A DNA stretch of 64,000 nucleotides from Bacilli bacterium (GTDB lineage: Bacteria; Bacillota_I; Bacilli_A; RFN20; CAG-826). Positions 11,434 through 62,210 of the stretch are shown here, one piece after another. Under the pieces are notes generated by a model. The model was not told where the DNA came from. It ran no database searches and worked only from the letters and a program-made list of their open reading frames with translations. How positions within the stretch are numbered: position 1 is the first letter of the stretch; every line of letters begins with the position of its first letter. The stretch spans positions 7,641-71,640 of the forward strand of contig JBGURM010000092.1 in assembly GCA_045132035.1 (NCBI GenBank). Reading direction: 5' to 3'. The position numbers were made by a program, and so were the translations under genes.

Positions 11434-12960
11434 TTAAATCTCGATGAGAGAATTTCTATTATGTTGAGGTAAACTAGAGGAAAAGTCATTTGGATTAAGC
11501 GCTAATCCATCTTTATATCCATTTGTCTTTAACCAATTTTTCAAAATAACACGATAATTATCATTTAAAACACCGATAGGAGTTCCACTAAATGAAGAGA
11601 AATAATCATAATATCTTCTAACATTCGTGTGGAACAAAAGGAAATCGATAGTCGCTATTTTATATTTTTTATTTGGGTCGATTCTTTTATCAAACGATGG
11701 ATTAAAGTAGACATTATTATAGTTAGTCACTTCATAATAAATATCTCTACCAGAAACCTCAGCAACAAAAGCGAAATTATCAAATGGGAATGACTCATAT
11801 AAATCAGAATAATCCCATTTTCCATATGGCAAGTAATGTCTAGCGGTGTTGCAATATGAAAGAATAATGTCATCATATCCTTCACTAACTGCTTCATCAT
11901 AGATTGCTTTACACATCAAATTGACTGCAGTTTCACTTTGAGCAAAATAACTTGTTACATTACTTGCAACCACTTCATTAGCAGCTTCTTCACAGTCGCT
12001 AGAGTATTCATTAATCAAAGCTTCAATATTCGTATCAATAGAAGTAATACGGCTATTAATGCTATTAGAATCGATGACTTCCACTGTAGTGTTTGTAACT
12101 TTTTTAGATTGTCTATCATATGTTAATTTAATATTTCCAATTAATTCTCCATATGCGCCAAATTGAACATATGTTAATCTTCCTTCACTTGACTGTTCAT
12201 ACCGATGAGTGTGACCACAAAGAACTAAATCAACATATTCTCCTAAAGAATTATTTTTAACATCATCTTGACCAGTATGAACAGACGCAATAACTAAATC
12301 ACATCCATTTCTTCTTAATTCAGTAGCTTCTTGCTTGATTATATCAATATGGTTTTTAAAACAAATGGTCTCTGTGTAATATGAAGTAATTGAAGTAATT
12401 TGATTCTCTCCAATAACTCCCACTATTCCAACTTTTAAACCGTTCTCTAAAGTATAAATAACGGACTTCCTACCGATATTTGATTGTTGTGTATTGCCAA
12501 CTGTGTGACTAGCAAAGTCATAATCATAGACATTTGCCGCTAAAACTGGAGTGACATAACCATCATATTCTCTAGCGGTGTTAGCCACTATTTTTTCTAT
12601 TCCCCAGTCAAAATCATGATTACCTACTGTTCTAGCGTCAACTCTCGCGTAAGCGTAAACATCATTAATTAATTGCCCATGGTTATAATTTGAATAAATT
12701 GAACCTTGCCAATCATCACCTTGAGAAATAACTAAAGTGTTTTCTTTTTCACCTTGTTCTTTAATATATGTTCCTAATCTTGCTAAACCAATTCTTCCAC
12801 TTTCAGGATAAATCGCTCCATGGAAATCATTAAAAGCGACGATATTGATTGTTTCTTCATCTTTAGTAGTTGTTCCTCCACCTTGTCCTCCAGTTGGACC
12901 ACAAGAAAAGATTGATAACACAGTCATCATAAAGAAAATGGAAACGATTCTTTTTCTCAT
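11434..12960 (-). CDS. 5'-nucleotidase / metallophosphoesterase family lipoprotein (UshA-like)
   Basis: Lipoprotein signal ...LSIFSCG. Calcineurin-like motifs NIVAFNDFHG, GDDWQGS, GNHDFDWG. C-terminal 5'-nucleotidase-like domain. Confidence 0.7.
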   Translation of the reverse strand: MRKRIVSIFFMMTVLSIFSCGPTGGQGGGTTTKDEETINIVAFNDFHGAIYPESGRIGLARLGTYIKEQGEKENTLVISQGDDWQGSIYSNYNHGQLINDVYAYARVDARTVGNHDFDWGIEKIVANTAREYDGYVTPVLAANVYDYDFASHTVGNTQQSNIGRKSVIYTLENGLKVGIVGVIGENQITSITSYYTETICFKNHIDIIKQEATELRRNGCDLVIASVHTGQDDVKNNSLGEYVDLVLCGHTHRYEQSSEGRLTYVQFGAYGELIGNIKLTYDRQSKKVTNTTVEVIDSNSINSRITSIDTNIEALINEYSSDCEEAANEVVASNVTSYFAQSETAVNLMCKAIYDEAVSEGYDDIILSYCNTARHYLPYGKWDYSDLYESFPFDNFAFVAEVSGRDIYYEVTNYNNVYFNPSFDKRIDPNKKYKIATIDFLLFHTNVRRYYDYFSSFSGTPIGVLNDNYRVILKNWLKTNGYKDGLALNPNDFSSSLPQHNRNSLIEI

Positions 12961-19784: not shown

Positions 19785-20075
19785 TAAAAAAGAAGTAGCT
19801 CTAGGCGAGAGTCATTAGCTCCTGCGTCCTACTTCCTACATTCAATATATCAACGATTTGATCTAAACAAAAGTATTATTTGCCCTAGTAATTAAAAAGG
19901 AAGTAGCTCTAGGCTAGAGTCATTAGCTCCTACGTCCTACTTCCTATATTTAATATAACAATGTTTTGGCTTAAATAAAAGTATTATTTATTGTAGCAAT
20001 CAAAAAGGAAGTAGCGCTAGGCCAGAGTCATTAGCTCCTACGTCCTACTTCCTACATTTACTATAGCAATAATCA
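19785..20075. repeat. Three tandem ~108-117-bp direct repeats (~85% identical). Each contains a conserved 46-nt hairpin, GGAAGTAG...CTACTTCC.
   Basis: Hairpins at 19792-19836, 19909-19944 and 20017-20052. On the minus strand each hairpin is followed by TTTTT and preceded by a TGnTATA(T/G)T extended -10-like box. Confidence 0.8.
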
Positions 20076-20203
20076 AGCCTATCTTAAAGAAGTTTTATAT
20101 GCACAAATGGAACAATAATTACTTTTTTCTTTTATCATATTAAATATTAATATAAATTATCTATATCAATTCCTTTTGAAGATTGGACACTTAAGGAGAA
20201 GTT

Positions 20204-29831: not shown

Positions 29832-29974
29832 GTTTTCTTGACCTCCTTTTCAATTTGTTTGGTTTTTTGAGGCTCCAATATACAGTGAGAATAAAATGTA
29901 TTTTTCTTCACCTAGGTAACATTATTAAGACTCAAACGTCCGTTACTGTCTTTGGTATATTGAAATCTTTTTAA
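29832..29974 (-). promoter_or_regulatory. Putative L10 (rplJ) leader. A 143-nt structured intergenic region sits in the position of the autoregulatory L10-leader.
   Basis: Position between rplA and rplJ. Called on position only; motifs were not verified. Confidence 0.3.
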
Positions 29975-31080: not shown

Positions 31081-31634
31081 GTGACTTTCCTCCTATATTT
31101 AGATTTGTCCGTGCTGTGGTACGGGTGAATCACCACTCTTCCACAGAACATTACATGTGTGCGATACACTCTCTCGTATGCGTAAAGCCACATGCTTGAA
31201 TAGAATATCAAATACGCATACACGATTGCAAGACAATTTTTAAGAAAATTTCATGAGTGTGTATATGTAAAAAAGTTATTAATAATATTAATAATTTAAT
31301 AGTTGGAAAAGATTAAAAAAGATGATTCTGCCAATCGAGTTTCCTCGCATTGTCGGCACAGGAGGACTAGGCTCCAACAAATCATCTACAGTTATTTAAG
31401 CATTATAATAAAGAGATTGCAACTAATAAAATGGTGTTTAACTTACATTTTAATATGATATATGAATAATAGTTGATGGATACATTCAAGTATTGGAACA
31501 CTTCTACTTATGGTCTCAAAGTACAAAATAGGTGGTTTATTGACATAAAACATTAAGTGTTGTATTGATAAGATGTTTTTAATCACAAAAAGGATGAGTA
31601 AAATTTAACTGTATTTTTGATACACTACAAATAA

Positions 31635-31663
31635 TAAAAAAGCGTTGCCGATTTGACAACGCT
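31635..31663 (-). terminator. Rho-independent terminator of the LRR/fibre operon
   Basis: AGCGTTG-loop-CAACGCT followed by TTTTTTATTATTT on the minus strand. Confidence 0.6.
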
Positions 31664-31683: not shown

Positions 31684-34600
31684 TTAAATTGGTGCGTGTA
31701 ATCCTGTTGAATCTAACGTATATCCATTAGAGAAAGTAACTAGATTTCCACCAGAATATGACGCAACTGTTCCTAATAATATCGCATTACCACTAGCGTC
31801 TTCATGCCAGAAAAGTAATGTTCCTTTAGCGACTGTATCTGTTCCAGTTACAACGCCTGTAGAGGTAAGATCACTCAACGTTTCAACATAGAAATAAATA
31901 TCATCAATTTGTAATTGAGCTTCGTATTTTCTCCACTCACTTGTCATACTCAAACTTGTACTGTATTTATTGTAAGTAAAGATTTTTAACGCCGAGTCAT
32001 TCTTAACCATGTAGTTATTACTGCTAGTGTTATACGAATTATTTCCTAGATTAAAGCCATTTGCTCCTCCAGGAAGCTGTAATTCCACCAAACTTGGACA
32101 ATTGTTAAATACACCATTATTATAGGCTGTCCATCGGCAACTTGGATTTGTCACTCTAAACGCTTCTAAATCAGAACAAGAAGCAAAAGCTGAGGCACCA
32201 AGACTAATCTGACTTGATGTTATTTTCATCGTCACAATATCAGAGCCGGAGAATGCACTACCACCAATACTCGTTACACTAGAAGGTAAAACAATATTGC
32301 CACTTGAGTCAATCACTCCAGTGTTTGCAAAGGCCGATCCTTTAATTGAAGTTAAAGATGTAAATTTGCTAAATTCAAATTGTTCTAGTTTTCCACATCC
32401 AGAGAACGCACTTGCCTCAATAGAAGTAATACCAATCGACGCTCCGTCAACTGTAACATGTTCTAAGTTGGTGCATCCTTCAAATGTTGATTCTCCTAAT
32501 TTGTCATAAAGAGTGGAAGGAAGACTAACATCTACCAAACTTGTGCAGCCACTAAATGCTCCAGTTTTAACTATATGGACTTGGCATAATGCTGAAGTTG
32601 GCCAAAGAATATTGGTAAGGCCAGTAGAAGCAAACGCTCCATCTTCGATTACAAGAGTTCCGGTGACATTTCTAAAATCTAACGTTGTTAAATTAGAACA
32701 TCCATTGAATGCATTGGAGTTTATTGTTACTGTTCCAGTAACATTACCAAAGCTAACTGTTGCTAAACTATCACAACCAGTAAAAGCACTTGATCCGATT
32801 GTCAAAGATCCTGATAACGAGCCAAAATTCACACTTGCCAAATCTCCACAAGACTCAAATGCACTGGAGCCGATTGTCAAGTCGGTTGATACAGGAGTAA
32901 AACTAATTGATGCTAGATTTTCACAATCCTTAAACGCTGAAGCTCCGACAGTAAAACTAGAATTATTAGCGGCAGTAAATGATTCGATAGATGGGTTGTT
33001 TTTAAAAGCCTCATCACCAATACCAGCATATTGGGAATTAGTTAAATTCAAAGCGTGAGCAACAGGTGTATCGCCTGTCACGTAATATGTTAAATCAGTG
33101 TTTTCAACACTATCGAAGACACCTTTTGGAATTATATCTCCAGGAGAAACAGGGAATTCAACGTTTGCAAGTTCTTCGCACCCTTTCATCGCATATTCAG
33201 GAAGATTAAGAACGTTACCAGCGATGGTGTCTAAGTTGCACTTAAATGCTGTTCTATCGTAACTTAAAACAATCTTACCTAAGTAAACATAACTATCCGT
33301 ATCAAACTCCATCGTTCCACTTCTAGATGATTTAGTGCCGATTGGAGAAAATAATGGTTGAGGAATTGTGTTAACACCAGATTGAGTTGGATTGCCACAA
33401 ATTAATGATCTAATCCATACACCCATCTTGAATGCACCAAACATATATGGGTTTGTTTTATATAATCCATTAAACTTAATGCCATTTTTTGGTGATCCAA
33501 CAGCGGATGTATCAGCAGCACCTTCTGCTGTATAATCAGCAGCATCTCTATTTAAAACCAGCAATAATCTATCTTTATTGAATGAAATACCAGCGTCGTT
33601 TGTTGAATATAACGCACATGTATATAAAGGTGTTCCTGCAGTGGCAGAAGTATAAGTTGTGACAGTGTAATAATTAGAACTTCCACCAGCAAAAGTGATT
33701 TGTCTAAGATTTAATGCGTTAGCGAAGATGGATTGAATTTTATCTTCTGGAGAAGCAACCACCAGCTTGCTTGGATCTTCGATTGATCCGCTTGGAACTG
33801 TAACTGAATTTTCAAAGAATTTACACGTGCTTGGAATATTTAAAATAGCTTTAACACCACAGAACAAGAAAGCACTCTTGCCAATATATTCAAGGGATGA
33901 TGGCATTCCTTCTACAGGCGTATTATTTCCGCTATACGACTTAATAGTCGTAACACCGTACGTTCGAATAAACGCATAATCTCCAATGGATTTAATTGTG
34001 TTAGGCAAGACAATCGTTGTTAAATCATCAAAGCTACCTACCGCCTTAGTAGGACTTGTATCCTGACCATCACAGAAGCAGCAAGAGAAAGCTGCATCTC
34101 CAATTTTATTAACGGTACAAGTTCTATTTGTTCCGTTGATTTTGGCAGTAACAGTTTCTTTAACTGTAGCGGTTGTTAAGCTAGCAGAATTGTCATAAAG
34201 ACTATACATATAGTTCGACATTGTAGCGACATAGTTTTCACCAACTTTGCCACAAACATAAGAGCATTTATCTTCTATAACTAATTCACGACTTGTTTCA
34301 CTAGAAACGCCAACTTCAACATTAATACCATCAATAGTTTCTTTATAATGGACATTATCATATACTGGTGTTTCTTGGTTGATTTCAAAAGTATTTACTG
34401 ATTCATCGCTAGAATAATCAGACGTATAGCTTGAGCCAAAAATAAATCCAAAGTGCTTTGTTGAGGCTTCTTTTGTTGCAAAATATGCTTCATTGCCAAC
34501 TGTTTTCCATTGGGTAGCCAATGATAATGCTTTATTCTCAAAGCTTAAGTTTGTCCAGTGCCCGTCTTTTTTGTCACTATACATATTAGTGCCATATGTG

Positions 34601-36780
34601 CCTGACAAGTATATGGCCGCCCTTCCATTACCATGGAAAGCAAAACGTTGCATTCTAAGATTTGTCGATATATTTGGCAAAATAAGAGTTTGCAAAAATG
34701 GTTCTCCTCTAAAGTCATTACAATCATTACCTGCGCTACCACCACTACCAGCGTTAGATCCAATTGATTCTTGACCATAAAAATTATCACGAGTCACACC
34801 ATCTTGTGTATGGAATGTAATAGTGTGATTCTCTCTTTCTTCGAAAATAATGGTTTGAAGAGATTCGTTAAAAACGAAAGTTTGAACAGGAATAATTAAA
34901 TCAACGGTTTCGCTTTCAGAGCCTCCTCTAAAAATTACCTTCCCTAGTAAGGAGCATCCAGCAAAAGCGTGAGCGGGTCTATCTTTTTTAGTAGCTTGAC
35001 CAGTTCCAAAGTCAAATCCATATGTATTTTTATATCTATTCTTATCATCAGAAAGAGTAGCAAAATATTTAAATTTTCTTGGGAAGATGAAAGTTGATGC
35101 AGTGTGAGCTTTCCAAGTGGCGTTTCCTTTAATTTGAGTGGTTCCACCTGCAGTTCTTCCTAGAGCATAAAAGGCGTCCGTTCCGATTGTCTCGAGTCTA
35201 GAACCTCCGTTTTCTGGGGCTCTATCGTCATATGCCCATGTAAAGACAGTAACTTCAGGAAGCATTCTTTGTTCAAATACGCCAAAAGCTTCGTCACCAA
35301 TAGCTCTGATTCTCGCTGGTAAATGGAGCTCTTTAATTTTAGATTTATTATCATTGCCACCAATGCCAGAAAAGGCACGATAACCAATAAATTCAAGGTC
35401 ATCCATTTGAGATAAATCAATTCTTCCAATAATATCGGCTTCACGACCTGTCGAAGCAAGCGAATAATCACCATCGCAGGCATCAAGAGTGTCAACAACA
35501 TATAAGTTAATGTAATTTTTACCTCTAAACATTTCGTTTTCGATAGCAGTCAATGTTGGTGGCAAATATAGTCTTTTTAAGTTGGTTTTATTAATACTAT
35601 CAAAAGTATTTCTTTCAACACGAACAACCCTATTACCAGCCGGTTCAGGCATATGTTCAGGAACAGCAATAAAGCCTTTAGCGGCTGTAGGCGCTGAACC
35701 TTTATATTTTGTGATGGTTACATCACCATTTGGTTTACATGTATATTCCCATTCGGAAGTATTAAAGAAATCGGCGTTAATAATCGAATCATAATTGTGT
35801 TTATCGGTAGCAGGATTGCCACTATCGTTATACCATCCCCAGTTTGGGTGGGCAGTTATCCAATTATTAATATCAGTAGAATCGCCACAAAAAGTAATTT
35901 TAAGTCGAGTATCTCCTTCGTGATTGCAATAATTAAATGCGTGTGGTTCAATTCCAATTCCAGAAGCGTCACCAACTCCATTAGCGTCAGTAAACATTGA
36001 TCTAGAGATGTAGATGGTCCTCAAAGAAGTACATCCTTGAAATGCTCGAGAGCGAATCGTTTCAATCTTTTGAAAATAAATATTACTAGACAAAGCAGAA
36101 CAACCATTAAACGCTTCCTCGGCAATTTCTTGAATCGAAGTAGGAAGTGACAAGGTTGTTAAAGAATTACATTTAAAAAAGCAGAAAGAAGGGATTCTTG
36201 TTAATGTAGAATATTGAGTACCTTCGCTGTCTGGCAAAACTTCACAGTTACAATCCAATGCTTTAGAGGAACTGTCTTGGTTGCTATTAATAAAATTAAC
36301 AGTTGTTAAGTTAGAACAACTATAAAATGCGGCGTCTCCGATTTCGGAAACAGTATATGGTATAGCAATTGAAGTAATTCTGCTATACATGAACGCTTCA
36401 AAGTCAATGGTAGTAACGTTAGTATCACTTCTAAAAGTAATATTTGAAGCGATATTCCCATGGAATGCATTATGCATGATTCCAGTCACTCTCTTGCCAT
36501 CTGTTGGATTGACGGAAGGGATAACAATGTTAGCGCTATGTGTTTTCTTTACACTATCTTTTAAAGAAATACCATAGGTATCTCCTGGAAGAAGATAATA
36601 ATCAAAAATGCCATCTGTACGAGCGTATGTACCATCTAAAATATAGTTAGGTTTGATGTCCGGACCTTTTGGAAAATCAGGAACATATCTAATGTTTGAA
36701 AAAGTTAAAACAAGAGTAAACAAAAGAAAAGCGGAATCGAATATTAATCGTTTTTTAGTTAATAATTTCTTAAAAATCAT
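31684..36780 (-). CDS. BspA-type leucine-rich-repeat (LRR_5) giant surface protein, 1698 aa
   Basis: N-terminal signal/anchor. Dozens of ~23-aa repeats of the form F..C..L..V.F....LTIG..AF (for example SISFTPVSTDLTIGSSAFESCGDLASVNF). Confidence 0.7.
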   Translation of the reverse strand: MIFKKLLTKKRLIFDSAFLLFTLVLTFSNIRYVPDFPKGPDIKPNYILDGTYARTDGIFDYYLLPGDTYGISLKDSVKKTHSANIVIPSVNPTDGKRVTGIMHNAFHGNIASNITFRSDTNVTTIDFEAFMYSRITSIAIPYTVSEIGDAAFYSCSNLTTVNFINSNQDSSSKALDCNCEVLPDSEGTQYSTLTRIPSFCFFKCNSLTTLSLPTSIQEIAEEAFNGCSALSSNIYFQKIETIRSRAFQGCTSLRTIYISRSMFTDANGVGDASGIGIEPHAFNYCNHEGDTRLKITFCGDSTDINNWITAHPNWGWYNDSGNPATDKHNYDSIINADFFNTSEWEYTCKPNGDVTITKYKGSAPTAAKGFIAVPEHMPEPAGNRVVRVERNTFDSINKTNLKRLYLPPTLTAIENEMFRGKNYINLYVVDTLDACDGDYSLASTGREADIIGRIDLSQMDDLEFIGYRAFSGIGGNDNKSKIKELHLPARIRAIGDEAFGVFEQRMLPEVTVFTWAYDDRAPENGGSRLETIGTDAFYALGRTAGGTTQIKGNATWKAHTASTFIFPRKFKYFATLSDDKNRYKNTYGFDFGTGQATKKDRPAHAFAGCSLLGKVIFRGGSESETVDLIIPVQTFVFNESLQTIIFEERENHTITFHTQDGVTRDNFYGQESIGSNAGSGGSAGNDCNDFRGEPFLQTLILPNISTNLRMQRFAFHGNGRAAIYLSGTYGTNMYSDKKDGHWTNLSFENKALSLATQWKTVGNEAYFATKEASTKHFGFIFGSSYTSDYSSDESVNTFEINQETPVYDNVHYKETIDGINVEVGVSSETSRELVIEDKCSYVCGKVGENYVATMSNYMYSLYDNSASLTTATVKETVTAKINGTNRTCTVNKIGDAAFSCCFCDGQDTSPTKAVGSFDDLTTIVLPNTIKSIGDYAFIRTYGVTTIKSYSGNNTPVEGMPSSLEYIGKSAFLFCGVKAILNIPSTCKFFENSVTVPSGSIEDPSKLVVASPEDKIQSIFANALNLRQITFAGGSSNYYTVTTYTSATAGTPLYTCALYSTNDAGISFNKDRLLLVLNRDAADYTAEGAADTSAVGSPKNGIKFNGLYKTNPYMFGAFKMGVWIRSLICGNPTQSGVNTIPQPLFSPIGTKSSRSGTMEFDTDSYVYLGKIVLSYDRTAFKCNLDTIAGNVLNLPEYAMKGCEELANVEFPVSPGDIIPKGVFDSVENTDLTYYVTGDTPVAHALNLTNSQYAGIGDEAFKNNPSIESFTAANNSSFTVGASAFKDCENLASISFTPVSTDLTIGSSAFESCGDLASVNFGSLSGSLTIGSSAFTGCDSLATVSFGNVTGTVTINSNAFNGCSNLTTLDFRNVTGTLVIEDGAFASTGLTNILWPTSALCQVHIVKTGAFSGCTSLVDVSLPSTLYDKLGESTFEGCTNLEHVTVDGASIGITSIEASAFSGCGKLEQFEFSKFTSLTSIKGSAFANTGVIDSSGNIVLPSSVTSIGGSAFSGSDIVTMKITSSQISLGASAFASCSDLEAFRVTNPSCRWTAYNNGVFNNCPSLVELQLPGGANGFNLGNNSYNTSSNNYMVKNDSALKIFTYNKYSTSLSMTSEWRKYEAQLQIDDIYFYVETLSDLTSTGVVTGTDTVAKGTLLFWHEDASGNAILLGTVASYSGGNLVTFSNGYTLDSTGLHAPI

Positions 36781-36798
36781 ATAGCTTTCCTCTCCTTT

Positions 36799-39700
36799 CT
36801 AAATTTCCGGATAAACAATCTTATCGTCGGTACTATCGCCTTCATTGAATAATGTAACTGTGGCGTTTGATAACCCAGTAACTGGGTGACTATGGGCGTA
36901 ATTTGATACAGCTATGTATGTAACTGCTGAGATATAATCTGTCGATATTACAAACTTATTTGTGGCTTGATTATATACAAAGCTGACATTAGCGGGAGCA
37001 GCATCGAATGTAGATCTATCAGAGTTGACTAATGCAACATAGCATCTTTGATTATCTACTCTACTGTCGCTTGGATTATATACAGTAACAGGGTGTTCTT
37101 TATCTAATGTAATATTAGTAGTTACCACACCTGTGCCTGGATTGTATGAGTAACATTCCTTTTTAACAAAGTCGACATTCTTGACTTCGTCTCTACTAGC
37201 AAACGCATTATCTTCGAAGGTGATTTGTCCATCAGTTTGTCCTTGAGCACAGACATAGAATAATTTTGCAATACCCTCTTTTCCACTATCTCTATTAACA
37301 CCTGAAGCAGAACCTATACAATATCTACCTGGTTCAAGTTTAAATGTGTGGGCATACAATCTTGTTTTTCCAGAAGAATAACCATATTCAGTTGTTCCGT
37401 AAGTGTTCGGGATAGTTGCATTAGTATGAATTGTGGCAGGCGTAAACGTTGAACCATCAGAATTATAGACACCAATTTGACCAACGTTTTGGTTATCAAC
37501 TTTATAATCAAAATAAGCTAGGTGGTCGTCTTTCGGCATAAAAAACGCAAAGTCAGGATCCTCAAATGTGCGGTTGACATATGGTTTTCCAAGATACTCA
37601 TCTCTTTCATCACCAATTTTATAAATACCGACAGCGGCTGGTTTTGTTCGATCGACTAGACCAGCAACAATCGTTACATTAGCTGTGTTTGTTTTGATTT
37701 CAAAATTAATCATATTTGCTACTGGCTTTTCATAATCATCATTATCGATACAATACATTTTCATACCCGTGCCAGATAAATCTGGAGTAGCGAAACTTGA
37801 AGCAAAGTAGCGAATTTCTTGTCCTAAGCTATTTCTTAACATGACACCACTCTTACCACTATTAGCAGAGGCAGGGATAGTGTGTCCGTCCTTATCGACA
37901 AGAACACTTTCAAAATACTTAGACATAAATGAACCACCGACAGTGTTTTTATCTACATCTGAAAAATAGAATCCTTTGCCTGTTCTATAGTTGTAGTCCA
38001 TTTTAAAACGTACAATATAGTTTTGGTGCCAATTACGTTGCTCGAAACTTTCAACGGTTATTTGGTCATAATTAGGGAAGTGATATCCTGGATGGAATGA
38101 AGATGGGGTGTTGGAGTTAAGAGCGTTTCTAAATTTATCAAATGTTGGGCCCTTATCTTTTTGATATTCACCAGTTGCATAATAAATATAATAGTTCGAA
38201 TCAACAGAAACATCTTCATTTCTAATAACTGATTTTTCTAAGTCGTTACTTGCTTCATAGTCCATACCCGAACCAGATTCGTTTGTAGCAATAGTAAAAA
38301 TACCTAAATCAGTATTAGAAATGATTTTCTGAGGTCTAAATGAAACGGAATCTCTTTCTAAAGTTACATGTTGGCCACTACCATTTATTCTTAAGAAATC
38401 ACGATATTTTAGTGACGAAGAAGGTGTATAAGAAACGCCACCACCAGGTAACGAGGTAGAAGTGTCAAATGAATGAGAGTCAATAATTTCATTATAAACA
38501 GATGTAAAGTCAAGAACACCAATGTCTTTACCAGTAGTTGTTGCTGCATCGCTTTCTTCAGCAGCGATGTTGTGAACGGTACCACCAATAAGACCGATTA
38601 ATCCATAATTTGAACCGTTTTCCATCGCATGATATGTAGAAAGTCCAGTAATTGTGTTACCGTTATTCATTTCAAATCTACCATTATAGACATAACAATC
38701 ACTAACCGAACCATCACAGTGACCAATAAGAAGACCTATATTGTTTGTGTGTTCAGAACCTAGGTGAGCGTTCATTGTTAAAATAGATGAATCTTTCGCA
38801 TTCAAAGCAAAATCAAAATCTAAGCTCATAACAACTTTTGAATGGTCTAGACCATAGTTATCAGTTGTACTAGCAATCAAAGAAACCGACGAAGAAGCAC
38901 GAAGTGGGAATGTGGTGGCTTCAGTTTTTTCTTTTTTAAAAAATCTATAAACTTCTTCTATATCGACAGAAACTTCGCTGTTTCCATCTGTATATGTTAG
39001 AAAATCACCAGAAATAAGGAATTTATACTTATAGTTTGTGTTTGTTGAGGTAAAGGAAACAACTGGTACATCGTAATCAATTGATGGCATTGGATCACCA
39101 CTTGATTCATCCCATTCGAAAAAATCTTCAGCGTCGAATTCAAGGAATTTGAATTTTCCAGTGTCTGTATTAATAAAAGTATCTGATTCAGAGCCTTCAA
39201 TATCATACACAAATGACGTTCCTACTGCTACAGGAGCGGATGGTCCATATAGTCCAGCAAATGAATCAGTATATCCAAGAGAGTTAATTGTGACATTACT
39301 CAAAAATAAATCATGAATACTAGAACCATGCGCTGTATAACCAAATAAACCAGCGTCTTGTGGATCAGCATAAACAGTTAAATTCTTAATCTCTAATCCT
39401 TGACCATCAAACTCTCCATAAAAAGGAACTGCTTCAGAGCCAATTGCGTTGATAGGTTCATAATCGTAGTCAGAATCGCTCATATCAAGGAAAGGAACAG
39501 TCGTTGTTGACGTATCATCAAGGTAACACAATGGTTTGCCAGTTAAGTCGCCCGCCAAGCCTTCCAAACCAAGCTGGAAATAAGTGCTTTCTTTAAAAAC
39601 TCCCAATCCTTGCAAACGAGACAAGTTATACATATGGCGTGGTCTAGTGATAACATATGGATCGCCAGGATCGCTTGGGCCATTAGTTCCTTTCGGCCTT

Positions 39701-39861
39701 CCAGTACCACGTTCAAAGTAAGAACGAAGAGAAACCTCGCCATAAAAGCCATCACTTTCAGCATCCTTGATATATGCGGATAAAGTGAAAGGAACGATCA
39801 TACTCACAAAAAGAAGAGTACAAATTCCAATATATGCTATTAAAACTTTTTTCGATTTCAT
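36799..39861 (-). CDS. Large secreted protein (1020 aa) with a TasA/camelysin-like N-terminal region
   Basis: Signal anchor then LSAYIKDAESDGFYGEVSL (compare camelysin AYFSDKEVSNNTFAAGTLDL). Beta-rich D/G/T-rich body. Confidence 0.45.
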   Translation of the reverse strand: MKSKKVLIAYIGICTLLFVSMIVPFTLSAYIKDAESDGFYGEVSLRSYFERGTGRPKGTNGPSDPGDPYVITRPRHMYNLSRLQGLGVFKESTYFQLGLEGLAGDLTGKPLCYLDDTSTTTVPFLDMSDSDYDYEPINAIGSEAVPFYGEFDGQGLEIKNLTVYADPQDAGLFGYTAHGSSIHDLFLSNVTINSLGYTDSFAGLYGPSAPVAVGTSFVYDIEGSESDTFINTDTGKFKFLEFDAEDFFEWDESSGDPMPSIDYDVPVVSFTSTNTNYKYKFLISGDFLTYTDGNSEVSVDIEEVYRFFKKEKTEATTFPLRASSSVSLIASTTDNYGLDHSKVVMSLDFDFALNAKDSSILTMNAHLGSEHTNNIGLLIGHCDGSVSDCYVYNGRFEMNNGNTITGLSTYHAMENGSNYGLIGLIGGTVHNIAAEESDAATTTGKDIGVLDFTSVYNEIIDSHSFDTSTSLPGGGVSYTPSSSLKYRDFLRINGSGQHVTLERDSVSFRPQKIISNTDLGIFTIATNESGSGMDYEASNDLEKSVIRNEDVSVDSNYYIYYATGEYQKDKGPTFDKFRNALNSNTPSSFHPGYHFPNYDQITVESFEQRNWHQNYIVRFKMDYNYRTGKGFYFSDVDKNTVGGSFMSKYFESVLVDKDGHTIPASANSGKSGVMLRNSLGQEIRYFASSFATPDLSGTGMKMYCIDNDDYEKPVANMINFEIKTNTANVTIVAGLVDRTKPAAVGIYKIGDERDEYLGKPYVNRTFEDPDFAFFMPKDDHLAYFDYKVDNQNVGQIGVYNSDGSTFTPATIHTNATIPNTYGTTEYGYSSGKTRLYAHTFKLEPGRYCIGSASGVNRDSGKEGIAKLFYVCAQGQTDGQITFEDNAFASRDEVKNVDFVKKECYSYNPGTGVVTTNITLDKEHPVTVYNPSDSRVDNQRCYVALVNSDRSTFDAAPANVSFVYNQATNKFVISTDYISAVTYIAVSNYAHSHPVTGLSNATVTLFNEGDSTDDKIVYPEI

Positions 39862-41423
39862 CAGAATCTCACCTCCTTTAATGGAGATGGAGCTGGTGCC
39901 AATTCAATATGTTCCTCAGCACTAAAGTAAAAATAGAAATCACGGTCTAGAAGATACGTTTTACCAACACGTTCTTGATTGGTGAAAAATTGCATATATT
40001 CGTAATCGTAGTCAATTGCGATATAACAGTGATAAGTTACTGGAGTATTTGACTCAGGAATCAAAGTTGAATCAGTATTTTCTTTAACATGTATATCACA
40101 TTCCACTGATGTATCTAACTCGGTATCGTTTTGGAATTTGTTATATGGATCAGCACGATCAACAATTCTATTTTTTCCAGCAACTATCTCGTAATCGGTT
40201 TGATATGGATGAGGCATTGCTCTAAAAGCATCCCACGCCGCTGTTGGAGTTGCGTATGGAACGGCAGTAAACATGGTATAGAAAGCATAAAAATCACTTG
40301 CGTTAAGTGGATTACGATGTGAACTGTCGACATAACCACGGTATGTATATGCATTTGTAGTAGCATATTTTCCTGTGTAGTTATAAATATAAGGCACTGA
40401 CGTTAAATCTGGATTTCTTATGATTTTTAATCCAGTTTCAACTTCATTTTTGTTTTGATAACTTAATTCAACATCTAACACAACTTGAGTGTTTTGTTCA
40501 TAAATTGCGTAAGGTAAATAGTCATTGATTGACTCGTAAGTTGCCGCAGCAGTGCCACGGTAATCAATGGTAATCTTAGTTGGATCAATTAAGTTATTAC
40601 CAATAATCGCATTGTCATTTCTTGAAGTGAGAATGATATCTAAGTAATGAGTTCCACCAGCGTCAACGCGATATTGGAATGTGTAAATACCAGCTTTTAA
40701 ACATTTAATACTCTTACCATCTTCAGAAGTAAATCTAGCATTACCACTTGGTGAAGTTGATGGTGAATTATATGTATAGTAATCACATGTTGGGCCAGAA
40801 ATTGTTCCAGCGTTAAAAAGAATAAACTCTGCTCCAATAGAAACAACAACATTATCAACAGTTACTGGTTCACCCACTACTGGAGCATCTTTTCTAGCAA
40901 ACGCTGTTGCGGTTAAAGTTGACCATTCATTTGTAGAAACTCCAGTAAATGTCGAATCACCCATCAAATAATAATGGAAATCCTGAGAGTCTTCATAATA
41001 AATGTTTGTGGCACTATTTGAAGAGCTGGTTGTTGTATATGAATGTGCACTTCCATTTATGCCTAAAGTAAATGTCACTGTGTTCGCTAAATTACTTGGG
41101 GTATTAACCGAAGCATCTTCAACAACATAACTCTTAACTTGGCCAACACCATCATAATCAACGAATTCTGTAGAGTTGTTATGATATGGGTAAATGTATT
41201 TATATGCAGAGACTTTTTCAATTGTGACACCTAAGTCACCAGAGAAAGTCGCCATTTGAGCGCCACCATTGTTAGAAAGATAGAACCATGCAAAAGTTGC
41301 ACTAGACAAAGCAAAAGCACTTCCAATCGTAAGAGCCACCATCGCAATAATGGTTTTCTTACTCTTGAGGCCATTTCCTTTGACCTTATTAGCTAAATTT
41401 GTGAATACCTTTCCTATTTTCAT
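39861..41423 (-). CDS. Secreted protein with a SipW-cognate-type signal peptide, TasA/camelysin (M73)-like, 520 aa
   Basis: ...ALSSATFAWFYLSNNGGAQMATFSGDLGVTI parallels TasA GGGTWAAFNDIKSKDATFASGTLDL. Shares a 1-nt overlap with the downstream gene. Confidence 0.5.
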   Translation of the reverse strand: MKIGKVFTNLANKVKGNGLKSKKTIIAMVALTIGSAFALSSATFAWFYLSNNGGAQMATFSGDLGVTIEKVSAYKYIYPYHNNSTEFVDYDGVGQVKSYVVEDASVNTPSNLANTVTFTLGINGSAHSYTTTSSSNSATNIYYEDSQDFHYYLMGDSTFTGVSTNEWSTLTATAFARKDAPVVGEPVTVDNVVVSIGAEFILFNAGTISGPTCDYYTYNSPSTSPSGNARFTSEDGKSIKCLKAGIYTFQYRVDAGGTHYLDIILTSRNDNAIIGNNLIDPTKITIDYRGTAAATYESINDYLPYAIYEQNTQVVLDVELSYQNKNEVETGLKIIRNPDLTSVPYIYNYTGKYATTNAYTYRGYVDSSHRNPLNASDFYAFYTMFTAVPYATPTAAWDAFRAMPHPYQTDYEIVAGKNRIVDRADPYNKFQNDTELDTSVECDIHVKENTDSTLIPESNTPVTYHCYIAIDYDYEYMQFFTNQERVGKTYLLDRDFYFYFSAEEHIELAPAPSPLKEVRF

Positions 41424-41425
41424 AA

Positions 41426-42295
41426 CTATGCAATCGAGAGTGTTAAGCTTGAAAGAGTTAATCCTTCATAGCAATTACTATTAAAACCAGTTAAATCACC
41501 ACTTGTGTAGTGTTCATAATAACCAGTAGTTTTATTGAGTTTATAGAATGTTCCTTCATCATTAGAGAATTCAATTGTGAAGAAAACGATTGTACGATAT
41601 CCATCTAAATTATCATCAACATCACTAACGACGACAACTTCTTCAACTGGGTTAGAAGCAGGATCGTCCTCTGAATAATCAAAAACATCAGTAATTGGAG
41701 ATGGATTAGCTCTTAAATCAGCGTAGTAACTTTGATATCCAGTTGCGATATCGGCTTCATCGTCACCAGAATCAAGCACACTATAAGATGCTCCATAAAT
41801 ATCAATTGCCCAAGAAAGATGAACTGGGGCGTCTTCTCCCACTGAAGCAGAACCTGTAACTTCACTCCAATCAGTGATTGATAATTTGCTCATTGCTTTA
41901 GAGCCTTTGATGATAAATGCATATGTCAATTTATGAGCTGGCCATAAATGTTCAATATTTGTTGGATCTGGATCATCAGTGACTACTCCATCTTCGTAAT
42001 TGATTTTGGTAAACGAAGCATCTTCATATTCAACTTGGTAGCCAGAAAAAATATCGGTAATTGAATTTTGGTTTCCATCATGAGATTCTGACTCATCGTC
42101 AGTGAAAGAATCTAAGTAATACATCTCATATTCAATTTGTTCTGGGGTCATAACTTTGAAAGAGCCACCGCCAACAGAAACAGATTGATTTGTAGAGAAC
42201 CAAGCATATGTTCCAGATATAGCGGCAAACAAAGAAAAGACCGCCGTCAACGTGGCAGCAACTATTTTTATTCTTGTTAATGTCTTTCTTTTCAT
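41426..42295 (-). CDS. Secreted protein with a SipW-cognate-type signal peptide, TasA/camelysin-like, 289 aa. First gene of the operon.
   Basis: MKRKTLTRIKIVAATLTAVFSLFAAISGTYAWFSTNQSVSVGGGSFKV. GAGGGG RBS. Confidence 0.5.
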   Translation of the reverse strand: MKRKTLTRIKIVAATLTAVFSLFAAISGTYAWFSTNQSVSVGGGSFKVMTPEQIEYEMYYLDSFTDDESESHDGNQNSITDIFSGYQVEYEDASFTKINYEDGVVTDDPDPTNIEHLWPAHKLTYAFIIKGSKAMSKLSITDWSEVTGSASVGEDAPVHLSWAIDIYGASYSVLDSGDDEADIATGYQSYYADLRANPSPITDVFDYSEDDPASNPVEEVVVVSDVDDNLDGYRTIVFFTIEFSNDEGTFYKLNKTTGYYEHYTSGDLTGFNSNCYEGLTLSSLTLSIA

Positions 42296-42313
42296 TTTGC
42301 CCCTCTACTATTT

Positions 42314-42352
42314 AAAAAGCCAGTCGCCTTATTAGTAGTTAGGCAGCTGGCT
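42314..42352 (-). promoter_or_regulatory. Terminator-like hairpin plus U-run inside the 5' leader of the fibre operon, immediately upstream of the RBS. Possible attenuator.
   Basis: Minus strand AGCCAGCUGCC-loop-GGCGACUGGCU (10/11 bp) then UUUUUAAAUAGUAGAGGGGCAAAAUG. Confidence 0.45.
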
Positions 42353-42611
42353 ATCTTAATTAATATCAAGACCCTTTAGTTTTGCGTCGCCGAATCACTC
42401 CGGTTTTGCTTTTATCATAACTTTTTTGTGCACTTATTATATAATACGAAATTTTTTGTTGTAAACATTTTTTTGCGAGCACGCATTATGTGCATAAGAA
42501 ACGACAAGAAAAAAATGTAGAACCAATCAATAAAAGTGCAACATTTATGTTGCCAGTTTTCCTATAAGTTGATTTTTTTAGTGTGGAGTGTATAATACAA
42601 ACAGTTTCATT

Positions 42612-44683: not shown

Positions 44684-44755
44684 TAAAAATAAAATGCACG
44701 TAGTGATTGAAACACAATGTGCATTTTTTATAATCAAAAATGGAGAATAGATTCC

Positions 44756-45001
44756 ATGAAGTGCGTAAAATATGAAGAATTTGTAAAAAATGCCGAATAT
44801 TATCTCGGTCTTTTAGAAGTTGAAGAAAAGATTTACGTCATTAAAGATGGTGGAACTTTTGCTATATTAGAAAATCCAAGAAAAATCGCATATGAAGAAT
44901 TCATAAAATTAAGAGGCTGCTTAAAAGATTTGGACGACGGTAGAGATTATAAAGAAATCATTGGCGACGCCATCTTAGAGGCAAACGGAATCAAAGCATA
45001 A
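44756..45001 (+). CDS. Small hypothetical protein with a weak Phd/YefM-like antitoxin pattern
   Basis: GGAGA RBS before ATG 44756 (the track starts at 44717). ...IYVIKDGGTFAIL... No partner toxin. Confidence 0.3.
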   Translation: MKCVKYEEFVKNAEYYLGLLEVEEKIYVIKDGGTFAILENPRKIAYEEFIKLRGCLKDLDDGRDYKEIIGDAILEANGIKA

Positions 45002-46219: not shown

Positions 46220-46462
46220 ATGGAAATTAATATCTATGAAGCAAAAACAAACTTATCAAAATTAGCACAATTATTGGTTGATGAAAAAGAAGATGAAATC
46301 ATTATTTGCAAAAATGGAAATCCAATTGTAAAAATGACAAAAATTCAAAAAGACAAAAAAACGAAAAGAATCGGTGCCGCCAAAGAAGAAATGAAAGGTT
46401 ACAACATTTCTCTTGAAGAATTCAATTCAATATCAGTAATTGATGATTTTTACGGTGATTGA
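46220..46462 (+). CDS. Type II antitoxin (Phd/prevent-host-death family) paired with VapC
   Basis: MEINIYEAKTNLSKLAQLLVDEKEDEIIICKNGNPIVKM... ends in ...DDFYGD. Its stop overlaps the toxin start (TGATATG). Confidence 0.7.
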   Translation: MEINIYEAKTNLSKLAQLLVDEKEDEIIICKNGNPIVKMTKIQKDKKTKRIGAAKEEMKGYNISLEEFNSISVIDDFYGD

Positions 46463-46463
46463 T

Positions 46464-46856
46464 ATGAGATATTTATTAGACACTCACACACTTATTTGGG
46501 CTCTAGAAGATAACCCAAATTTACCTGAATCTGTAAGGGACATCATTACTAATGAGAACAATGATATCTTTGTATCTGGTGTTTCAATTTGGGAAATATC
46601 AATTAAACACAAGAAAAATCCAAATTCGTTACCATATTCAGGAAAAGAAATAGTTCACTTTTCGCAAAGAGCAGGATATAGATTTTTATCCGTATCAATT
46701 GAAGATGTTCTAACTGTGGAAGATTTTGATCATAAAGACCATAAAGATCCGTTTGACATTATGTTAATTTCTCAATGTATAAACGCAAAAATGAGAATAA
46801 TTACACATGATTCTATGCTGAAAGAAATTAACGAAAAAGCTGTATTATACTTTTAA
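46464..46856 (+). CDS. vapC: VapC-family PIN-domain toxin
   Basis: MRYLLDTHTLIWALED...SGVSIWEISIK... is a PIN signature. ATG overlaps the antitoxin stop. Confidence 0.75.
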   Translation: MRYLLDTHTLIWALEDNPNLPESVRDIITNENNDIFVSGVSIWEISIKHKKNPNSLPYSGKEIVHFSQRAGYRFLSVSIEDVLTVEDFDHKDHKDPFDIMLISQCINAKMRIITHDSMLKEINEKAVLYF

Positions 46857-60857: not shown

Positions 60858-62012
60858 TTATTTAGAAATCTTTTTCTTTTTGAAGAAGAAGAATCCACCG
60901 ATAGCAGTAGCCGCAACAAGTGAGACAAGAACAATTGTCATTGTGTTGTTGTTGCTATTGTTATTTTCAGCAACGAACCCAATATTTGCTCTACCATTTG
61001 GAGTAAATGTTCCTGCTGAAGGATTAAATGTTTCTCCATTAGCAAGAGCCCATTTGCCTAATCTTTCAATTGCATCTGGGAAGCTTTCGTTTAGTTGTGC
61101 TAGCGCATAAGAGTTTGCATAAATTGCAGTATAGCCTTGTTTGGCTGCGTTATACAACGATTTACAACCATCAGAATCTCTTCCTTCGCCAGCGGCTTTA
61201 GAGGTGGTTCTGAAGTCCATAAGATTTTGACTGAAATTATGAGCCCAAACATAGTTAATGTTACTCCACCAAGTATTTTTCCCATCTAAAACTGTTTCAT
61301 TGTTAGCGAGAACATAACAGTTATTATTTCCACCATTTGTTGGTCTTGAAATTGTATCTGTCTTATTTGCATCCCCACCAACATTAAAAATGAACCTATT
61401 ATAAGCGTTTAGTAAATCAGCATAATAAACTCTTCCATTTCCGGCGCTTTCTGCTGTAACACCCATATTAACGCCAGACCACTGAGTGCTATATGCTGTG
61501 TCCCCTTGCTCGTTCCACGCATGTACTTTGACCTCACCATTGCCAAACTTATTGTCATAATCATACAAATATATTCTTAATGTCTCAGGTTCCATTGTTT
61601 TCCATCCATTATTATAAAAATAATGTGTAGAAGATGTAGGCGCGGATAAATTGTCAGATTGCATTCCATGATTATCATTATGGAATTGAATATTAGAATA
61701 AAGTGGCTGATCATTAGTTGGATGCCAAGCAAAAACAGCTTGTCCAAATTCATTATCATATGCCCACTTCATTTGCCATGCGGAAGCCCAAGTAGTTCCT
61801 GGCGTTCCATTGCCATCCCATGTATGAATTCTAACTACATTGTCACCCCAATCAGATGGTCTGGTGAAATAAATATAAAGGCTTGTGTCAGTACTAGCTG
61901 CTTCTGCTTCTTCAACTTTTGCTTCTTTAACAGCGCTAGCACCAGTAAAAGCACCGACACCTAAAAGAGTTACAAAAGCAGCAGTTAAAAACAATTTGCT
62001 TATCTTTTTCAT
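60858..62012 (-). CDS. Cell-surface protein with signal peptide, two CBM25/26-like starch-binding-type repeats and a C-terminal TM/K-rich anchor
   Basis: LYIYFTRPSDWGDNVVRIHTWDG...TTW and LRIYLYDYDNKFGNGEVKVHAWN repeats. C-terminal AIGGFFFFKKKKISK. Confidence 0.5.
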   Translation of the reverse strand: MKKISKLFLTAAFVTLLGVGAFTGASAVKEAKVEEAEAASTDTSLYIYFTRPSDWGDNVVRIHTWDGNGTPGTTWASAWQMKWAYDNEFGQAVFAWHPTNDQPLYSNIQFHNDNHGMQSDNLSAPTSSTHYFYNNGWKTMEPETLRIYLYDYDNKFGNGEVKVHAWNEQGDTAYSTQWSGVNMGVTAESAGNGRVYYADLLNAYNRFIFNVGGDANKTDTISRPTNGGNNNCYVLANNETVLDGKNTWWSNINYVWAHNFSQNLMDFRTTSKAAGEGRDSDGCKSLYNAAKQGYTAIYANSYALAQLNESFPDAIERLGKWALANGETFNPSAGTFTPNGRANIGFVAENNNSNNNTMTIVLVSLVAATAIGGFFFFKKKKISK

Positions 62013-62125
62013 AAATTTTACCTCCCGAAAGTGAAATATATGAAATTATATTTAGGATACAATATTACCAAGATTCAATCAATATTTTTTAATTAATTAA
62101 AATACTTATAAAGTAAACAATATAA

Positions 62126-62145
62126 TAAAAAGCGCCATAGGCGCT
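62126..62145 (-). terminator. Rho-independent terminator after the 62211-63293 gene
   Basis: AGCGCC-ata-GGCGCT followed by TTTTTATTATAT on the minus strand. Confidence 0.55.
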
Positions 62146-62210
62146 TTCTGTATACAAATTTCTACAAATAATTATAACTTTCGGGAGTTAGTAGAAATAT
62201 GTAACCTTAA

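Follow-up and report, generated by a model that had tools for sequence, protein, structure and literature searches.

In Firmicutes, riboswitches that respond to cyclic diguanylate (c-di-GMP) control genes for adhesins and pili, such as pilA1 and CD2831 of Clostridioides difficile and the gene for a collagen-adhesion protein of Bacillus thuringiensis. The leaders of these genes contain GEMM-type riboswitches that are ON at high c-di-GMP, and their products are type IV pilins or sortase-anchored adhesins. Fibers of the TasA type are encoded by operons such as Bacillus subtilis tapA-sipW-tasA and Bacillus cereus sipW-tasA-calY, each of which specifies several exported proteins with a special signal. 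SipW removes the TasA signal peptide, and residues 28 to 38 of TasA are the donor strand, in which F29, I32, and F39 serve as hydrophobic anchors; TapA makes use of this device as well (PMC9674648, PMC10151520). The sipW-bsaA-bsaB-bsaC genes of Clostridium perfringens encode two remote TasA-like matrix proteins and a large protein with adhesion domains, all with special signals, and BsaA oligomerizes via an N-terminal segment and is locked by isopeptide bonds; a riboswitch goes unmentioned in the description of these genes (PMC11580942). The subject here is a four-gene operon at positions 31684 to 42295 of a 64,000-nucleotide (nt) stretch of DNA from a Bacilli bacterium (contig JBGURM010000092.1; the whole stretch is referred to as the window). 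The locus has points of resemblance to each of these systems and is probably a c-di-GMP-controlled surface adhesion module.

The four genes lie on the minus strand and are designated P1 (41426 to 42295; 289 amino acids [aa]), P2 (39861 to 41423; 520 aa), P3 (36799 to 39861; 1020 aa), and P4 (31684 to 36780; 1698 aa), the last of which encodes a BspA-type leucine-rich-repeat (LRR) surface protein. All four open reading frames (ORFs) are present as they were given in the initial annotation of this DNA. P1 to P3 belong to three families that share an N-terminal export-signal motif, T-x-A-W-F in its most conserved form. The nearest four-gene analogue of this cassette is C. perfringens sipW-bsaABC, which differs in that it begins with sipW and in that its accessory protein carries a von Willebrand A domain rather than LRRs. 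The cassette differs from the riboswitch-controlled adhesins of other Firmicutes in having three families without a domain model together with an LRR lipoprotein; in addition, a set of operons that encode T-x-A-W-F proteins is marked by the riboswitch.

A c-di-GMP riboswitch at the head of a mobile cassette

The most informative feature of the locus, which the initial annotation overlooked, is the aptamer of a c-di-GMP-I (GEMM-I) riboswitch in the operon's 5' leader (42339 to 42420, minus strand). The aptamer matched Rfam model RF01051 over its full length (model positions 1 to 87) and scored 55.8 bits, where the gathering score is 35; the P1 start codon, on the same strand, lies 43 nt past its end. 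Upstream of the aptamer, a consensus scan found the top-scoring promoter-like site of the region, TTTACA-18 nt-TATAAT, with 11 of 12 matches to the consensus (42436 to 42465, minus strand); its position suggests that it may be the operon promoter. A Shine-Dalgarno-like GAGGGG (42300 to 42305, minus strand) stands 4 nt before the P1 ATG at 42295. The genes are tightly packed, with a 2-nt gap between P1 and P2, a 1-nt overlap of P2 and P3, and an 18-nt gap between P3 and P4. An intrinsic terminator (31663 to 31641, minus strand), comprised of a 9-bp stem with 5 G-C pairs followed by TTTTTATTAT, is found 21 nt past the P4 stop codon. Because the promoter is upstream of the riboswitch and the terminator follows P4, the locus is one self-contained transcription unit of promoter, c-di-GMP-I riboswitch, four genes, and terminator. 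The single transcript that had been proposed from gene packing is therefore backed by promoter, leader, and terminator as well as by gene spacing. Nothing about the base composition of the locus was atypical.

The minimum-free-energy fold of the leader (-35.2 kcal/mol; z = -3.4) contains a candidate expression platform, a terminator-like hairpin UUAAGAUAGCCAGCUGCC...GGCGACUGGCUUUUUAA that ends in a U run (42312 to 42359, minus strand; -18.3 kcal/mol and z = -3.7 for the hairpin alone). Its 5' arm is GAUAGCCAGCUGCC, which is also the 3' strand of the second helix of the aptamer, as paired in the cmscan alignment. Since the aptamer and the terminator hairpin share this strand and are thus mutually exclusive, the leader is a putative ON switch: bound c-di-GMP would stabilize the aptamer and block the terminator, so that high c-di-GMP would turn the operon on. 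The presence of this riboswitch in the leader of genes for surface proteins strengthens the suggestion that the locus functions in surface adhesion.

The cassette was compared across approximately 45 loci from genomes, assemblies, and metagenomes, with flanks of up to 10 kb. The gene order P1-P2-P3-LRR was kept in all of them except L016, in which P1 is located elsewhere, and L024, in which the order is rearranged. Of the 39 related loci with upstream sequence, 37 have the riboswitch immediately ahead of the cassette; these 37 are the window, 19 loci from genomes or assemblies, and 17 metagenome loci. It is kept even where the P1 relatives are only approximately 23% identical (L022, on a 1.18-Mb contig, and L025). 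These divergent relatives still head the same architecture, in which the P1-like gene is followed by a second, smaller gene and then by P3-like and LRR_5 genes, and in L022 the second gene product has the T-x-A-W-F motif.

In the window, the cassette is flanked downstream by rplK-rplA-rplJ-rplL-rpoB and upstream by a divergent pair of TrkH/TrkA-type potassium transporter genes, beyond which nusG and secE were identified by eye. The possibility that the cassette is a fixed insert between nusG and rplK was rejected because none of the 25 other loci checked had rplK, rplA, nusG, or ktrAB within 10 kb. The flanks differ at each locus, which makes the nusG-rplK site a peculiarity of this genome and indicates that the cassette moves as one piece. 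The riboswitch travels along with it from one neighborhood to another.

P1, P2, and P3 each have approximately 100 to 200 homologues, all of them from metagenomes or metagenome-assembled genomes (MAGs) and none with a Pfam domain or functional name. The few labeled homologues are assigned to "Bacilli," "Erysipelotrichaceae," or "Bacillales bacterium," and most of the samples are from the rumen. P1 has 95 close homologues, two of which are named "hypothetical protein" (from Bacilli bacterium MAGs), and a P1 profile recovered 420 cluster representatives among 1.84 billion proteins. P1 can be regarded as the founder of a family without a domain model whose members lead the cassettes.

Additional c-di-GMP-I riboswitches stand before operons in L005, L021, L007, L014, L001, L034, and L038, the first product of which is P1-like or which encode T-x-A-W-F proteins. 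Sister modules were observed just upstream of the main cassette in L005 (2874 to 7305), L021 (2224 to 6740), L034 (2082 to 6873), and L038 (409 to 5423), each with a riboswitch, a P1-like protein of 250 to 320 aa, and a T-x-A-W-F protein of 1224 to 1351 aa. The two sister-module proteins of L005 had no Pfam or NCBIfam match.

Some leaders depart from the arrangement in the window. Those of L005 (2772 to 2846) and L042 (161 to 238) gave their highest scores with the c-di-GMP-I-GGC variant RF03167 and not with the standard class (60.5 and 60.1 bits, respectively, against a gathering score of 59), and some modules may conceivably respond to another ligand. Many relatives (L005, L007, L010, L011, L014, L018, and L021) have a longer expression platform between aptamer and P1 start, in which an initial strong terminator, AACCUCAA...UUGAGGUUUU, is followed by GACAGCCAGUUGCC, a second copy of the aptamer 3' strand that itself forms a further hairpin, giving a two-stage platform. 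Regular-expression searches for sequence motifs found ORFs with GGDEF and HD...GYP motifs adjoining the cassette in L006 (18458 to 21952) and L016 (3932 to 8143). The GGDEF-motif gene of L006 is itself behind a c-di-GMP-I riboswitch (20012 to 20092, minus strand), an arrangement that suggests feedback.

An invariant N-terminal junction in undescribed protein families

All four products have a basic stretch at the N terminus followed by a hydrophobic segment, which are export signals. The conservation at the end of this region was evaluated with an alignment of 52 P1-family sequences (37 to 64% identical to the query) and one of 49 P2-family sequences (37 to 67% for both sets together). In the P1 family, the alanine at position -1, the tryptophan at +1, and the phenylalanine at +2 are invariant (52/52), and 50 of the 52 sequences have threonine at -3. 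In the P2 family, alanine at -1 and phenylalanine at +2 are invariant in all 49 sequences, tryptophan at +1 is present in 48, and threonine or serine at -3 is present in 47. Valine or alanine alternates at +8 and +10 after the junction. More distant P1 relatives (n = 54) have the pattern T/S-x-A-W-F/Y. In these alignments, the conservation of the motif is far beyond chance. The P3 family has the junction consensus T-x-A-L-Y-x-K in the same place, and P3 of the window fits the motif loosely.

The strings that first drew attention to the N termini are present in the translations (SGTYAWFSTN and GGGSFKV in P1, SATFAWFYLSN and ATFSGDLGV in P2, and LSAYIKD and FYGEVSL in P3). The special signal that the three proteins were proposed to share is clear in P1 and P2 and present in a weaker version in P3; the consensus T-x-A-L-Y-x-K means that this weaker third example holds at the level of the family. 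Homology of P1 and P2 could be detected only across the signal region (hhalign probability, 90%; E = 1.5e-6; 34 columns). The region consists of an n-region, then a hydrophobic core (approximately 16 residues in P1 and P2), and finally a small, polar c-region whose last residue is alanine. This alanine is a plausible signal peptidase I site, and the -3/-1 rule is satisfied in essentially every member. Prepilin, lipoprotein, and sortase signals were considered for P1 to P3 and rejected, as the proteins have no G↓FTLIE, no lipobox cysteine, and no C-terminal LPXTG.

The T-x-A↓x-F core (the arrow marks the junction) is in register with the G-T-W-A↓A-F cleavage site of TasA and its donor-strand anchor F29. 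The TasA subunit is a jelly-roll beta-sandwich, and P1 and P2 are predicted to be jelly-roll beta-sandwiches as well. The differences are as substantial. The cassette has no PF12389 match, no TIGR04088 match above the cutoff, and no sipW in cis. The cassette proteins have W-F in place of the TasA x-F-x-D, and the aspartate at +4 that is typical of the SipW-cognate class is absent from the P1 and P2 families. The distance from the junction to the L-x-P-G strand is approximately 85 residues in P1, in contrast to approximately 30 in TasA. The cassette has an additional 1020-aa protein, P3, and the 1698-aa LRR protein, and a c-di-GMP riboswitch is found instead of SinR. The three families share an invariant export-signal motif that, as judged from the alignments, resembles the motif of TasA yet does not match it.

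Scans of P1 to P4 against Pfam, NCBIfam, and PHROGs matched only LRR_5 and LRR_8, both on P4, and the four family profiles (A1 to A4) had no meaningful match among the Protein Data Bank (PDB) sequences. AlphaFold models of P1 and P2 are confident jelly-roll beta-sandwiches, with predicted local distance difference test (pLDDT) scores of 87 and 81, respectively. In these predicted monomers the segment after the junction has low pLDDT (residues 28 to 42 of P1 and 38 to 62 of P2), as expected of a free donor strand. When the models were searched against PDB structures with Foldseek, the TasA fiber 8aur ranked first for P1, with a weak score (E = 9e-3), and the jelly-roll models matched TasA no better than they matched carbohydrate-binding module (CBM) family CBM32 and other modules of this type. 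Similarity to archaeal donor-strand filaments (Pyrobaculum bundling pili AbpA and Sulfolobus threads) was limited to very weak scores, with no sequence relationship.

P2 also matched SusE and SusF, the starch-binding lipoproteins of Bacteroides thetaiotaomicron. The predicted resemblance spans 108 to 117 aligned residues at 10 to 13% identity, one domain's worth, and is taken to correspond to an inserted extra domain of P2. Elsewhere in the window (60858 to 63293, minus strand) are two adjacent surface proteins, both with a signal at the N terminus and a transmembrane helix followed by a KKK tail at the C terminus; two CBM26 starch-binding modules (6.9e-12) are found in one of them. This pair adjoins genes that were read by eye as those for 4-alpha-glucanotransferase, branching enzyme, and glycogen phosphorylase. 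A glycan or starch target, as suggested by the SusE/F-like module of P2, would fit this CBM26 surface protein and these starch and glycogen genes.

P3 is the most conserved protein of the cassette, with 218 homologues and 45 to 68% identity among the matches listed. A scan of 36 P3 relatives for known families returned nothing relevant. Residues ~119 to 214 of P3 had a weak match to the uncharacterized phage family phrog_30905 (E = 0.0011). GLUG-like beta-helix repeats that seemed apparent by eye in P3 (GLFGY..., IGHCDGS..DCYVYNG; G-L-x-G-...-C-Y) were dropped, as Pfam gave them no support.

P4 was readily assigned. The giant BspA-like LRR protein of the initial annotation was borne out by a Pfam LRR_5 (PF13306) match of E = 1.7e-82 (274 bits against a gathering score of 27.7) in seven stretches, with a further match to LRR_8 (E = 3.9e-20), and LRR_5 also matched the P4 orthologue of every cassette. 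Like the BspA-type proteins, to which NCBIfam HupY/LrrG belongs, P4 is surface tethered, and it matched HupY/LrrG weakly. It scored 55.9 bits against the HupY equivalog cutoff of 1250, is far larger than the characterized members, and is always the fourth gene of the cassette. P4 lacks the T-x-A-W-F motif. Most of its relatives have a lipoprotein signal, with a lipobox cysteine in at least 15 orthologues (for example, ...ATGCGS in L007 and ...GAACSG in L014). In P4 of the window (~36700 to 36780), which has an N-terminal hydrophobic anchor, serine replaces the lipobox cysteine (...LVLTFSNIRY), so that for this protein an uncleaved signal anchor is more probable than a lipoprotein signal.

Possible modes of assembly

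The best explanation overall, which we hold with moderate confidence, is that the operon specifies an apparatus for cell-surface adhesion that is induced by c-di-GMP and is made up of undescribed protein families, possibly in the form of a TasA-like donor-strand fiber. The fiber is the more tentative part of this explanation; beyond regulation, the steps that follow are inferred, and the link to TasA is weak. P1, P2, and P3 would be exported by Sec and cut after the invariant alanine. The new W-F N terminus and the V/A-x-V/A segment that follows would dock as a beta-strand into a neighboring subunit, a donor strand modeled on TasA A28-F29...F39. P1 would polymerize or dock, and P2 and P3 would join via the same N-terminal device. 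P1 is small, is the product of the first gene, and is common to all of the sister modules and therefore may be the repeating or docking subunit. The LRR protein P4 would tether the assembly to the membrane, bind substrate, or both, and the SusE/F-like module of P2 might bind glycans, such as starch, on feed particles. That the proteins operate in a TasA-like manner is a reasonable hypothesis, and they would function at best like components of the TasA type.

Several results weigh against a TasA-like apparatus under c-di-GMP control. A validated B. subtilis TasA reference sequence (PF12389, 2.4e-37 and 129 bits; NCBIfam TasA, 9e-155; TIGR04088, 38 bits) showed what a true member scores. PF12389 (Peptidase_M73) had no match to P1, P2, or P3 at E ≤ 1 and none at E ≤ 0.01 among 58 distant P1 relatives; none of the 62 proteins scanned matched it. 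TIGR04088, a 34-position model with a cutoff of 19 bits, gave 10.6 bits for P1 (E = 0.5) and nothing for P2 or P3; 2 of the 58 distant P1 relatives matched it at E of approximately 0.04. Alignment of profiles A1, A2, and A4 with TasA by hhalign yielded E values of 0.19, 0.11, and 0.16, with probabilities below 1%, and TasA was not found when the profiles were compared with PDB sequences. Searches with phmmer, using SipW and SipS queries, had no match at E ≤ 10 in the window or in the approximately 45 loci, and a regular expression for the S26 catalytic motif found in the same DNA only one SM.PT-type string, which was inside a P2 homologue (L017). The initial annotation was thus accurate in stating that no sipW is visible in the window. 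P3 had no Pfam, NCBIfam, or PDB-sequence match and no recognizable fold or domain, and the riboswitch was undetected in L019 and L020, the two most distant cassettes. Furthermore, the uncharged stretch up to the junction alanine, with a median length of 21 residues across the P1 family and its distant relatives, is long enough that it could be an uncleaved membrane anchor; the W/F pair also matches the appearance of a membrane-interface belt; and F20 and L22 are conserved inside the P1 hydrophobic region, which is unusual for a signal peptide that is to be discarded.

It is conceivable, although on balance doubtful, that T-x-A-W-F marks an unrecognized class of export and assembly in genome-reduced Bacilli of the gut and rumen. 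The riboswitch regulon would then be one of sipW-independent, TasA-like donor-strand fibers, with a small P1-type jelly-roll protein as the universal polymerizing subunit, the LRR lipoprotein as the tether, and interchangeable large cargo subunits that join by the same N-terminal strand: P2 with its starch-binding-type module, P3, and the 1200- to 1350-aa proteins of the sister modules.

The main alternative, although an unlikely one, is that no fiber is made and that P1 to P3 are uncleaved anchors in a membrane-anchored hetero-complex, a c-di-GMP-induced adhesin complex with the LRR lipoprotein. A-W-F would then be an aromatic membrane-interface or helix-packing motif by which the three proteins bind one another or a shared partner within the membrane, in keeping with an organism that anchors many of its surface proteins by transmembrane helices. 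The length of the uncharged stretch before the motif would suit such an anchor, as would the conservation of I11, F20, and L22 within the hydrophobic segment. The homology of P1 and P2 extends over the whole transmembrane-plus-motif region, and the AlphaFold model of P1 draws residues 4 to 35 as one continuous helix that runs through the motif. Elsewhere in the window, surface proteins have C-terminal transmembrane helices as their anchors rather than LPXTG, and no dedicated peptidase is nearby. However, the S/G-T-x-A c-region obeys the -3/-1 rule in approximately 100% of the sequences, which would be needless for an anchor, and the hydrophobic core proper of P1 and P2 is only approximately 16 residues long. 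AlphaFold also draws signal peptides as helices, and the 10 to 20 residues after the motif are low in confidence and strand-like rather than a helix cap.

More improbable is that P1 to P3 are divergent TasA, CalY, or camelysin proteins that form a TasA-type biofilm fiber after cleavage by an archaeal-type SipW encoded elsewhere in the genome. The nonsignificant hhalign alignments nonetheless fall in the expected register with TasA, pairing G-T-x-A-W-F with G-T-W-A-A-F, S-G-D-L-x-V with S-G-T-L-D-L, and L-x-P-G-x-R-x-T-F with L-K-P-G-D-K-L-T. Against this, every TasA-type match was below threshold or nonsignificant (E = 0.11 to 0.5), the aspartate at +4 is missing, and P1 and P2 have no detectable mutual homology outside the signal. 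Furthermore, sipW is missing from all of the approximately 45 loci, whereas known operons carry it in cis (PMC9674648, PMC11580942). The TasA/CalY/camelysin signature that the initial annotation had read into the N termini failed the cutoffs of both the PF12389 and the TIGR04088 checks, and P1 to P3 are not members of this family by any test that was run, with several of its defining features failing in the sequences. What stands of the dedicated surface fiber or adhesin locus proposed there is a single transcription unit for exported surface proteins, and the conserved riboswitch strengthens the idea of surface adhesion; membership in the TasA/camelysin family was not borne out.

It is very improbable that the products are independent secreted glycan-binding proteins or enzymes for capture or degradation of feed particles or starch that are coregulated by c-di-GMP and form no common structure, an idea to which the CBM32-like jelly rolls, the SusE/F-like domain of P2, and the CBM26 and starch-metabolism genes of the organism lend some color, because four genes in strict order, with overlapping or nearly abutting frames down to approximately 23% identity, argue for a physical or functional complex, because no glycoside hydrolase or catalytic domain was detected in the Pfam and NCBIfam scans, and because the invariant mature N terminus would be left unexplained.

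The wider window and the host lineage

Between the operon terminator and rplK are approximately 560 nt (31081 to 31640) with no ORF or Rfam match, which is unusually long for the leader of a ribosomal-protein operon. The ribosomal protein L10 leader (RF00557; 50.5 bits) was found before rplJ-rplL, as expected (29882 to 29973, minus strand). Two small ORFs (44717 to 45001 and 46440 to 46856, both plus strand) flank nusG-secE, and the second resembles a PIN-domain (VapC-type) toxin by eye. A phage or defense origin of the cassette was rejected, as there were no relevant PHROG matches and composition was not atypical.

Other surface proteins are encoded farther away. A 919-aa protein (5034 to 7793, minus strand) has weak similarity to LRR_5 and C-terminal membrane helices. 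A protein with endonuclease I and Big_2 domains (10155 to 11378, minus strand) is anchored by a C-terminal transmembrane helix rather than by LPXTG, and the 5'-nucleotidase that is encoded at 11434 to 12960 (minus strand) has an N-terminal cysteine and appears by eye to be a lipoprotein. Such a set of surface nuclease and nucleotidase is typical of genome-reduced, possibly wall-less Bacilli.

The systems with which the operon can be compared are of kinds already known: c-di-GMP riboswitches before adhesin or pilus genes, TasA-type fibers, and BspA-type LRR adhesins. What is new is their combination, together with three conserved families that have no Pfam or NCBIfam model and an invariant T-x-A-W-F junction, the defining mark of a set of client proteins. 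Also new are the tight coupling of this set to c-di-GMP riboswitches, the lack of a cis-encoded peptidase, and the occurrence of the system in an uncultured rumen lineage with small genomes. A search of the literature found nothing specific on the T-x-A-W-F motif, or on c-di-GMP riboswitches with TasA-like genes or in these lineages.

The host lineage comprises abundant, uncultured, small-genome bacteria of the rumen and gut, the surface biology of which is almost unknown. The cassette provides a concrete, testable output of c-di-GMP in this lineage, in which the riboswitch tells when the proteins are made, and the N-terminal motif offers a means of finding all of the client proteins. If the donor-strand idea is true, then TasA-type assembly extends to a lineage and a family that are invisible to sequence searches and does so without a peptidase in the operon; if it is false, the motif is nonetheless a new signal for membrane anchoring or sorting. 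Should T-x-A-W-F proteins form fibers with interchangeable cargo, they would represent a new kind of modular adhesion fiber for colonizing feed particles. A connection of c-di-GMP with adherence to starch or plant particles is hinted at by the SusE/F-like module.

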